A DNA stretch of 64,000 nucleotides from an uncultured bacterium (lineage in GTDB: Bacteria; Cyanobacteriota; Cyanobacteriia; Thermostichales; Thermostichaceae): positions 14,611 through 78,610 of the forward strand of contig CAYSWV010000011.1 of assembly GCA_964434865.1 (NCBI GenBank), in the 5' to 3' direction. Positions 56,298 to 59,146 of the stretch are shown one piece after another; positions within the stretch are counted from its first letter, which is position 1, and every line of letters begins with the position of its first letter. A model generated the notes under the pieces. The model ran no database searches. It was not told where the DNA came from and was given only the letters and a program-made list of their open reading frames with translations. The translations under genes were made by a program, and so were the position numbers.

Positions 56298-57053
56298 TTA
56301 GTTTAATTGCCGAGTAACAATCCGCTCCACTAAGTCTTTACAGGCTTCTGGGGTTAGTTGATCAGGATGTTTGACTTGGTAATCACGCAACAAAACGTCA
56401 CGGATAAGGGTTTGTTCTACACCTACTGATTCTCGAGCTAGCCGCACTCGTTCTGCATTACTTAGATCTTCAGGAGGTAATGGCGGGGTGCTGATCAGAG
56501 TCTCATCTCCCTGGTTAACTAATTGAAGAGCCGTCTGAATAATCGGTTCAAAATCAGTTTCACTGTTCCATTGAGAAGATTCCACCATAACTCCGTGAAG
56601 CCAGACCTGGCAAAACAGTACTTTCTCATCTTCACCAGGCAGAGGTACGATCTGAATAGGACTTTGAAGTTGCTCGGGCATGAGCATGACAAGAGCTGAG
56701 AGGAAGCTTTTCGCAAATACTGACGTTTCAGAGCATTCTAAAATCCAATGTTGATCAGCTTCAACTGTAATATGTAATTTGTTGGTTTCTTTACCACGAC
56801 GCTCAGTGGTGACTACCGCTAAACGACGGAGATAACCTGTCAGCGATCCGTATTCAAGACCCTGATTTTCACCATTAATCCGACGATACCAGAGATAAGG
56901 AGGACATTGTGTTCGGTTGCAATAGATGACAGGAGCCCCCGGTGGTGGACCCAATCCTAAGGGCTGGCGTTGAGTTTGCAATTCAATTAACTGTTGTAGA
57001 AGCTGATTCTGTTGACGCAATAGGGGAATGATCTCTCCAGATAGCTGATCCAT
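56298..57053 (-). CDS. Hypothetical protein
   Basis: 251-aa ORF with no motif recognised. Confidence 0.4.
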   Translation of the reverse strand: MDQLSGEIIPLLRQQNQLLQQLIELQTQRQPLGLGPPPGAPVIYCNRTQCPPYLWYRRINGENQGLEYGSLTGYLRRLAVVTTERRGKETNKLHITVEADQHWILECSETSVFAKSFLSALVMLMPEQLQSPIQIVPLPGEDEKVLFCQVWLHGVMVESSQWNSETDFEPIIQTALQLVNQGDETLISTPPLPPEDLSNAERVRLARESVGVEQTLIRDVLLRDYQVKHPDQLTPEACKDLVERIVTRQLN

Positions 57054-57312: not shown

Positions 57313-57714
57313 TTACTGCTTAGGTTCAGCTATTTCTTCAAGGCCCAGAGAGTCAATATCAAGAGCAGCAGATCCACCTCTGACCAAGAGTTCTAGCAGT
57401 GATCCTAGCTGCCACCAGACTAATCCTGCCGTACTGAGCACCATGATCAGAGCAGTGACCAGAGCAACTGGGGTAGTGAAGCCGATAACTTCCAAACAGC
57501 TCGCTAGAAAGGCCATTGTAAATACACAGGTCAACAGATAGGTCAATATAATCAGAGGCTTTTGGTAATAAATCTGAGGCTGAGACTCACGGTACTGCTG
57601 CCACTCTCCAACTTGATACTCCAACATATCCTTGAAAATAATGCCAAAGATAATTGCTAAAAAGTTGGTGATAGCAATAACGGAGGTCAGGGGTAGGTGG
57701 AAGAAGGTGTCCAT
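57313..57714 (-). CDS. Small membrane protein (hypothetical)
   Basis: 133 aa with 3-4 hydrophobic helices. Confidence 0.45.
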   Translation of the reverse strand: MDTFFHLPLTSVIAITNFLAIIFGIIFKDMLEYQVGEWQQYRESQPQIYYQKPLIILTYLLTCVFTMAFLASCLEVIGFTTPVALVTALIMVLSTAGLVWWQLGSLLELLVRGGSAALDIDSLGLEEIAEPKQ

Positions 57715-57928
57715 ACAGTCTCCAGGATGATGATAATGGTGCTAATTCTTTAGATCACTGATGTAAGCTTAGCAGTTCTTCGCATTTCTTAAAATTGGTA
57801 ACGGCTCAAGCTAAAGCCAGATGAGATTGCCAAATGAGGCATAGGGCTGCTTTTTTCCTGTGGTAGCAAGCCTGTACCTAATTCTAGGCTCTGGTCTCGC
57901 CAGTTTGGTCAGATTTCGATCAAAAGGA

Positions 57929-57957
57929 TTGACAAGGATCCGGATTATGTGTATACC
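57929..57957 (+). promoter_or_regulatory. Sigma70-type promoter candidate for the tandem sRNA units
   Basis: TTGACA (57929-57934), a 17-nt spacer, then TATACC (57952-57957). This puts the predicted start ~7 nt downstream, right at GGTGAGGAGTG. Confidence 0.4.
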
Positions 57958-57964
57958 TATTACT

Positions 57965-58030
57965 GGTGAGGAGTGAAGAGAAAAAGCTCTGGAGTCGAAA
58001 CACGGCAAGACGCCTGGGGCTTTTTCTTTC
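57965..58030 (+). ncRNA. Yfr2-family-like sRNA candidate, copy 1
   Basis: 5' GGUGAGGAGUGAA, then a bulged hairpin GCUCUGGAGUC-GAAACACGGCAA-GACGCCUGGGGC, followed by UUUUUCUUUC. Confidence 0.45.
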
Positions 58031-58038
58031 TTAAGAGT

Positions 58039-58116
58039 GGTGTGAGGAGTGAATACAATAAGGTAGGGTCCTGGAGTCGAAACATGGCAAGACGCCCAGG
58101 ACTTTACTTTATGTTT
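58039..58116 (+). ncRNA. Yfr2-family-like sRNA candidate, copy 2
   Basis: 5' GGUGUGAGGAGUGAA, in which GUGUGAGGAGU is the exact complement of the Yfr1 core ACUCCUCACAC. The hairpin GUCCUGGAGUC-GAAACAUGGCAA-GACGCCCAGGAC has compensatory changes relative to copy 1, and is followed by a U-rich tail. Confidence 0.45.
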
Positions 58117-58372
58117 AAGTTTATTTGATAGCTTGCTGTTGGATTATGAAACGATCTGAAGATGGTCGATTTCTGCCTGAGGGGCCTCTTGAGAAGACTA
58201 TTGACCTAAGAAGATTTCGAGACCTAGCTAAGAACCAAAATTTATCATCGATTGAATTGAGTAGTAAAGCCTATACGAACCGATTAACCCCAAGAGCCTC
58301 CCTCTTACCGTTCGATGGATTGGCCCGGATCTTCACCTCGAATAATCGGGTCTGGCTCATTCAAGGTTGCCT

Positions 58373-59146
58373 ATGCACTCTATCTTAATGGGATTTGCAG
58401 CTAGCTTACTGGCTGGCTTAGCCACTCCTGTAGGCGCCTTGCCGATTTTGCTAACTCCCCAAATAGATGAACGGCTTCAAGGTATCTTTTTAGGCTTTGG
58501 GGGAGGGGTAATGCTAGCGGCAACATCCTTTTCTCTGATTGTGCCAGGCACCGAAATTGCAATTGAACAAGGCTCTCCGCGATGGGAGGCTGCTTTGATT
58601 CTGCTAGCTGGCATAGTGATCGGGGCTTTGTTTTTAGAGTTTGCACATCGCTGGTTTCCGCATGAGCACTTTTTCAAAGGCAACGAAGGCCGAACACCCG
58701 CTCAATTAACTCGGATCTGGTTATTCGTCACTGCCATAACCATTCATAACTTTCCAGAAGGCCTCGCAGTAGGTGTTGGGGTCGGCTCGCAACCTATTCA
58801 TGAAGGGTTGGTATTAGCCACTGGGATCGGGTTGCAAAATATGCCAGAAGGGTTGGTCGTGGCTGTATCTTTACTGAGTCAGGGGTACTCTGTAATCTAT
58901 GCTCTGGGGATCTCATTGTTAACAGGGCTGGTCGAACCTATTGGCGGCTTGATTGGAGCTAGTGTGGTGAGTTTAGCTCAAGATATTTTACCGTGGGGGA
59001 TGGGGTTTGCCGCAGGAGCCATGCTTTTTGTGATCAGTGATGAAATTATCCCTGAAAGCCATCGGCAAGGCTTTGAACGAGAAGGCACCTTTGGGATTAT
59101 TGTTGGGTTTGTGGTCATGATGGTGCTGGATATTTCCTTCGGTTGA
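58373..59146 (+). CDS. ZIP-family divalent metal transporter (ZupT/GufA-like)
   Basis: HNFPEGLAVG and NMPEGL motifs with ~8 TM helices. ATG at 58373 is preferred over TTG at 58367. Confidence 0.85.
   Translation: MHSILMGFAASLLAGLATPVGALPILLTPQIDERLQGIFLGFGGGVMLAATSFSLIVPGTEIAIEQGSPRWEAALILLAGIVIGALFLEFAHRWFPHEHFFKGNEGRTPAQLTRIWLFVTAITIHNFPEGLAVGVGVGSQPIHEGLVLATGIGLQNMPEGLVVAVSLLSQGYSVIYALGISLLTGLVEPIGGLIGASVVSLAQDILPWGMGFAAGAMLFVISDEIIPESHRQGFEREGTFGIIVGFVVMMVLDISFG

Follow-up and report, generated by a model that had tools for sequence, protein, structure and literature searches.

We found that the gap ahead of a ZIP-family metal transporter gene very probably encodes two adjacent Yfr2 small RNA (sRNA) genes arranged head to tail, with each unit matching the Rfam Cyano-1 covariance model, folding into the hairpin typical of Yfr2, and carrying a 5' seed complementary to the Yfr1 sRNA of the same genome. 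The two units repeat with a period of 76 nt behind one recognizable promoter, a compact layout that is fixed in this genus and was found nowhere else among 401 sampled cyanobacterial genomes. The simplest reading of this layout would be that both copies are transcribed as one unit, by reading through the terminator and possibly with processing. Coordinates refer to the window, i.e., the whole stretch of 64,000 nucleotides that was analyzed; G000 denotes the genome from which it comes and G001 a second genome of the same genus. The features are the following:

57929-57934, plus strand: -35 hexamer TTGACA, read directly; identical and at the same distance in G001
57952-57957, plus strand: -10 hexamer TATACC, read directly, after a 17-nt spacer; identical in G001
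57963-58032, plus strand: Yfr2 copy 1 (Rfam Cyano-1), with a putative start at 57963-57966 and a putative end in the U-tract CUUUUUCUUUCUU
57965-57977, plus strand: seed of copy 1, GGUGAGGAGUGAA, unpaired in the MFE fold and 7 nt past the -10 hexamer
57977-58029, plus strand: hairpin 1 from folding, with the loop GAAACACGGCAA at 57997-58008; doubles as the terminator stem
58024-58035, plus strand: linker TTCTTTCTTAAG between the units, a putative U-tract and/or processing site
58036-58116, plus strand: Yfr2 copy 2 (Cyano-1, 40.9 bits), conserved in G001
58038-58053, plus strand: seed of copy 2, UGGUGUGAGGAGUGAA, complementary to Yfr1 and ~9 nt past hairpin 1
58058-58112, plus strand: hairpin 2 from folding, with the loop GAAACAUGGCAA at 58079-58090 and a weak U-rich tail after it
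58367-59146, plus strand: ZIP-family metal transporter gene (PF02535, E = 9.4e-25), 250 nt downstream of copy 2

Two tandem units of the Yfr2 family

Using the Rfam covariance models, we identified copy 1 (57967-58029, plus strand) as Cyano-1 (RF01701), with model positions 1-69 matched and a score of 45.1 bits (gathering score 41 bits). When the whole 64-kb window was scanned, this was the only sRNA match above threshold (E = 1.5e-4). Copy 2 (58036-58111, plus strand) reached 40.9 bits in a local search, 0.1 bit under the cut-off, its score being reduced by a 13-nt insertion between its seed and stem; the E-values of the local search were 1.8e-6 for copy 1 and 1.6e-5 for copy 2. Throughout the 5.1-Mb assembly, which is 96% complete, these two units were the only Cyano-1 matches, and, upon searching the genome with a regular expression for seed plus loop, only these two matches displayed the Yfr2 layout. 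PMC8400943, citing Gierga et al. 2009, gives the Cyano-1 motif as the hallmark of the Yfr2 family, and the kinship with Yfr2 that the first-pass annotation of this DNA had proposed is borne out by the matches on both units.

Both units also fit the published description of Yfr2, in which a long helix carries a 12-nt loop with a bulge near the loop at position -4, the first 8-13 nt are unpaired, and the 5' end and the loop form the two highly conserved stretches (PMC2662882): each consists of an unpaired 5' GUGAGGAG seed, a long interrupted stem, and a 12-nt GAAACAYGGCAA loop. Folding placed the two bulged hairpins with 12-nt loops, which had initially been drawn from the sequence by inspection, at 57977-58029 and 58058-58112, and in both of them three pairs close the loop, followed by an unpaired A on the 5' side and an unpaired G on the 3' side. 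The seed of copy 2 was unpaired in the MFE fold except for a weak 4-bp helix, and the fold z-scores were -1.6 for copy 1 and -4.5 for copy 2. Furthermore, reverse-complementing bases 1-16 of the published RT primer for Synechocystis Yfr2a (PMC2662882) yields exactly the loop region of copy 2, CGAAACATGGCAAGAC.

The window contains the 12-mer GTGAGGAGTGAA just two times (57966 and 58042). The shared start of the two seeds was recovered as first described; the difference between them, which had been given as a single U, is actually a 2-nt insertion (GGUG-UG-AGGAG). The changes between the lower stems, GCUCU/GGGGC versus GUCCU/AGGAC, had been called compensatory, and they comprise one fully compensatory change together with wobble-to-Watson-Crick changes. 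At its 3' end, copy 1 reads CUUUUUCUUUCUU, in agreement with the U-tract ascribed to it, and with its five U's this tract looks as good as the terminators of single-copy relatives. The U-tract of copy 2 is weak.

Predicted pairing with Yfr1

Yfr1 was present in all 31 genomes searched (this genome and 30 relatives) and occurs as a single copy here (G000:C7:115297-115361, minus strand), where the RF01116 model gave 45.7 bits (cut-off 38 bits) and a TATGAT -10 hexamer lies upstream of the gene. Copy 1 contains GUGAGGAGUGAA, a 12-nt perfect complement of UUCACUCCUCAC in this Yfr1, and the copy 2 seed UGGUGUGAGGAGUGAA is a 16-nt perfect complement of UUCACUCCUCACACCA. The first-pass annotation had singled out GUGUGAGGAGU in copy 2 as the exact reverse complement of ACUCCUCACAC, which we confirmed in the sequence, and had put the odds of a chance 11-mer match in the two-strand sequence of the window at ~3%. 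We counted ACUCCUCACAC five times in the 5.1-Mb genome, with ~2.5 occurrences expected by our own arithmetic and one of the five being the bona fide Yfr1. The 11-mer is not diagnostic alone; the weight is carried by the covariance model and the structure.

Upon predicting the duplexes with the Yfr1 loop, we obtained energies of -22.4 kcal/mol for copy 1 and -31.8 kcal/mol for copy 2, and cofolding with Yfr1 yielded gains over the separate folds of ~19 and ~29 kcal/mol, respectively. The background was provided by the 5' regions of 1500 long open reading frames (ORFs) of this genome, for which pairing with the Yfr1 loop gave a mean of -12.1 kcal/mol (sd 3.7); 0.7% of these regions were as strong as copy 1 and none of the 1500 (0%) was as strong as copy 2. 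Both units are thus predicted to pair with Yfr1 far more strongly than ordinary mRNA 5' regions do.

In the proposed mechanism, the seeds would base-pair with the single-stranded ACUCCUCACAC region of Yfr1, over 12 bp for copy 1 and 16-17 bp for copy 2, and this pairing would sequester Yfr1 and lift its repression of target mRNAs. We suggest, by homology, that both RNAs act on Yfr1 as decoys or antagonists: Yfr1 and Yfr2 of Prochlorococcus MED4 co-purify, a reporter repressed by this Yfr1 recovers when Yfr2 is co-expressed, and RNase E cuts free Yfr2 but not Yfr1-bound Yfr2 (PMC6778093), while Yfr2 of Nostoc 7120 shifts Yfr1 in EMSA (PMC6974561).

Promoter and transcription of the second copy

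A Yfr2 gene is typically an independent unit that is transcribed from its own promoter into an abundant RNA of ~65-90 nt, and, judging from sequence and conservation, the cassette appears to have such a promoter. The near-consensus TTGACA-17-TATACC that had been described ahead of copy 1 was read at 57929-57957, and its hexamers and spacing are the same in G001. Across 23 relatives, TTGAC(A/T) precedes GGTGAGGAG by a constant 36 nt, and the -10 hexamer is also found at a fixed distance from GGTGAGGAG; these constant distances support the promoter assignment and place the seed right at the 5' end of the transcript. A strong sigma-70-type promoter of this form would start the RNA ~7 nt past the -10 hexamer, so that copy 1 would open directly with the conserved GGUGAGGAG seed. 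A promoter/terminator scan listed neither the cassette promoter nor the hairpins, and these misses are uninformative because the rules of the scan demand a T at position 6 of the -10 hexamer and loops of 3-8 nt. Upstream of the -35 hexamer, a comparison with the relatives by eye revealed no conserved element that would mark a CGRE1/PlmA-type site.

For copy 2, neither direct reading nor the scan found a recognizable sigma-70-like promoter between or within the units. The best -10-like hexamers ahead of it, TCTTAA and AAGAGT, match TATAAT at 3/6 positions and would start transcription inside the seed, and TTGACA is absent ahead of copy 2 by direct reading, whereas the Yfr2 promoters of all 23 relatives have one at the fixed distance. 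TTAAGA-17-TACAAT in copy 2 (58031-58059, plus strand) was considered as a promoter and rejected, since the match is at chance level and the start would fall after the seed. The G001 counterpart of this stretch reads TTAAGT-17-AAGAAT; its conservation may simply reflect constraints on the RNA.

We propose that each unit has an intrinsic terminator in the U-rich 3' side of its hairpin and that copy 2 most likely arises from read-through of the copy 1 terminator, after which a cut in the invariant UUCUUUCUUAAG linker would free it, or it would stay joined to copy 1 in a dimer with two seeds. Both copies would then be co-transcribed and expressed. Whether the pair is indeed transcribed as one unit, making it a compact 'double-headed' Yfr2 with two Yfr1-binding seeds of unequal strength (12 and 16 nt), is in our judgment evenly balanced. 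The product of such a unit could be either one ~150-nt two-site sponge or two RNAs cut apart in the UUCUUUCUUAAG linker, and copy 2 would be expected to carry a processed 5' end.

A tentative alternative, which we consider possible though doubtful, is that the units are two independent Yfr2 genes, with a promoter for copy 2 (-10-only or of an unrecognized kind) located inside the 3' half of copy 1. A -35 element is missing from many cyanobacterial promoters, for which the -10 element alone suffices, and the copy 1 terminator looks efficient in this genome: as it seems to match those of single-copy relatives in quality, it may let little transcription through to copy 2. Units of Nostoc-type arrays, moreover, each have their own promoter and terminator (PMC6974561; arrays inspected here). 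However, merely ~9 nt lie between hairpin 1 and the copy 2 seed here, which adds to the poor -10-like hexamers (3/6, with a start inside the seed) and to the missing TTGACA, for which 23/23 relatives have a fixed-distance TTGAC(A/T), in speaking against two separate genes.

Conservation of the cassette and its relation to the ZIP gene

Among 41 genomes (the present one plus 40 relatives), 40 gave Cyano-1 matches, as did 344 of the 401 sampled genomes of the class. The cassette of the same-genus genome G001 consists of TTGACA-17-TATACC, copy 1, the linker TTCTTTCTTAAG, and copy 2, and, when it is compared with G000, the conserved stretch has its precise beginning at the -35 hexamer and extends as far as the end of hairpin 2, with unalignable flanks on the outside and a diverged promoter spacer between the hexamers. 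For both units, loops and seeds are invariant in G001 and the stem substitutions are compensatory, with paired changes such as AAAAAGC/GCUUUUU versus AGAGGC/GCCUCUU, and the 12 bases of the linker TTCTTTCTTAAG are invariant while the adjoining stem bases have changed. Using RNAalifold on 17 related sequences, we recovered the family hairpin with 18 pairs, 11 of which show compensatory changes. Three small ORFs overlap the RNA region (57973-58128 on the plus strand; 57960-58085 and 57811-58008 on the minus strand) and were rejected as coding: indels of 1 nt and 5 nt between G000 and G001 rule out a coding reading, and the substitutions are paired.

The genomic position of the cassette is not conserved, as its flanking genes differ even in G001, where, by our reading of the ORFs, it is placed between a glycosyltransferase-like ORF and a putative acetyltransferase ORF. 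This bears on the alternative raised by the first-pass annotation that the units act in cis as a 5' leader of the ZIP gene, e.g., a metal- or RNA-responsive attenuator, rather than as free sRNAs, a reading that we now regard as very unlikely. The units do share the strand of the ZIP gene and lie 250 nt ahead of it, with no convincing promoter detected in between by the scan; the U-tract of copy 2 is weak; and Synechocystis Yfr2b and Yfr2c share a transcription start with the downstream gene (PMC2662882). However, no ZIP gene lies within 1.5 kb of the G001 cassette, and, over the same distance, 30 other Cyano-1 loci in relatives likewise lack a ZIP gene (0/30) and any other neighbor of the present locus. 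Conversely, the 1.5 kb upstream of the ZIP orthologues in G001 (82% identical) and G003, the two relatives with readable upstream sequence, contain no Cyano-1 match. Conservation furthermore ends with hairpin 2, and the ZIP 5' region pairs with Yfr1 below average (-9.3 kcal/mol versus the mean of -12.1 kcal/mol). The unconserved association with the ZIP gene hence makes a dedicated ZIP leader unlikely. Incidental read-through into the ZIP gene is possible, of the kind reported for Synechocystis Yfr2b/Yfr2c (PMC2662882).

The ZIP mRNA itself was rejected as a target of Yfr1, as its duplex of -9.3 kcal/mol is weaker than the background mean. An 87-aa ORF that fills the stretch behind copy 2 and overlaps the ZIP start (58125-58388, plus strand) has no Pfam match and no homologue in 20 relatives and is therefore probably not a gene; the 250 nt between copy 2 and the ZIP gene more likely represent the promoter and 5' UTR of the latter. 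On the other side of the cassette, the divergent neighbor is a 133-aa hydrophobic ORF (57313-57714, minus strand), followed by a 251-aa ORF (56298-57053, minus strand); neither has a Pfam match, and in relatives both are absent from the surroundings of the Yfr2 cassette and of the ZIP gene.

Finally, that one or both units are non-functional, through chance resemblance or as a decaying duplicate, is barely credible: the copy 2 score 0.1 bit under the Rfam cut-off and the copy 1 fold z-score of just -1.6 could be cited for it, but the local E-values of 1.8e-6 and 1.6e-5 and the retention of both units in G001 with compensatory stems, invariant loops and seeds, and unalignable flanks contradict it.

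A Yfr1-linked paralogue and the role of the tandem pair

In many genomes of the same family, Yfr1 is preceded, at a distance of roughly 115-270 nt and on its own strand, by a divergent Yfr2-like gene; examples are found in G001, G002, G003, G008, G012, G014, and G016. This gene has the same plan of seed and hairpin as the tandem pair and yet is a different paralogue, with the seed GGUGAGGAGUGGACG, the loop GGAACAAGGAUA or GAAACACGGACA, and its linkage to Yfr1. The Yfr1-linked copy of G001 folds strongly (z = -5.9). At the corresponding position of the present genome (G000:C7, ~115.50-115.56 kb, minus strand), there is a degenerate remnant, in which a TACAAT -10 hexamer is followed by ...GAGUGAGGACUAAACG..., with no significant fold (z = +0.6). 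A remnant of this kind suggests that the Yfr1-linked paralogue was lost in this genome, and, as it is all that is found at the Yfr1-linked position, the tandem pair is probably the only intact Yfr2 here.

If the paralogue was lost, as it appears, the tandem pair would be the sole Yfr1 antagonist of this genome. The analysis confirms that this lineage has the genes for both sRNAs of the Yfr1/Yfr2 pair, and it assigns the 650-bp gap ahead of the ZIP gene to sRNA genes instead of a metal-sensing leader. While the Yfr2 family and tandem Yfr2 genes are already known, what is unusual here is the closeness of the copies and, probably, their one shared promoter. Provided that the promoter is shared, a dimer with unequal seeds would offer a simple natural system for studying how the dosage and affinity of a sponge tune Yfr1 activity.

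Comparison with known Yfr2 systems

A close precedent for the layout is Nostoc sp. PCC 7120, which has four Yfr2 repeats (PMC6974561) and shares with the present locus the head-to-tail arrangement of Yfr2 copies on one strand. Arrays comparable to that of Nostoc were also found in our survey of genomes of the class. We inspected three of these (G175, G191, and G183), which were taken as Nostoc-type: their units recur every 161-173 nt and individually comprise a -10 region, a clean terminator, and a ~85-nt spacer, whereas the units described here are separated by a spacer of ~9 nt lacking a recognizable promoter and repeat with the period of 76 nt. Upon searching the 401 cyanobacterial genomes with a compact-dimer pattern, we obtained true dimers only in G000 and G001; the 7 other matches were not Yfr2-like, and a reversed-pattern control gave 8. 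A stricter tandem pattern returned no cyanobacterial match in a species-representative collection, outside of which this genome and its near relatives may fall, and its 5 non-cyanobacterial matches compare with ~4 expected by chance according to a hand estimate.

The tandem pattern also caught two similar stretches of ~80 nt each, 2.5 kb apart, in a distant cyanobacterium (G150:C1:2209524-2209603 and 2211991-2212070; L086 and L089). These read GTGAGGATTGGAAC...GTTGCACCTGGCCTTCGGGCTGGGTGAGGA and were rejected as Yfr2, being another kind of repeat.

Decoy function has been demonstrated only in distant cyanobacteria, namely MED4 and Nostoc, and is predicted by homology in the present case. With Yfr2-5 of Prochlorococcus MED4 and Yfr2a-c of Synechocystis PCC 6803, the tandem pair has in common the 5' GUGAGGAG seed complementary to Yfr1, the long interrupted stem with its 12-nt GAAACAnGGnAA loop, a strong promoter of its own (putative here), the presence in multiple copies, a non-conserved genomic position, and an occasional location directly upstream of a same-strand gene. 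The difference from these systems is that here two copies are fused, with a 76-nt period and one recognizable promoter.
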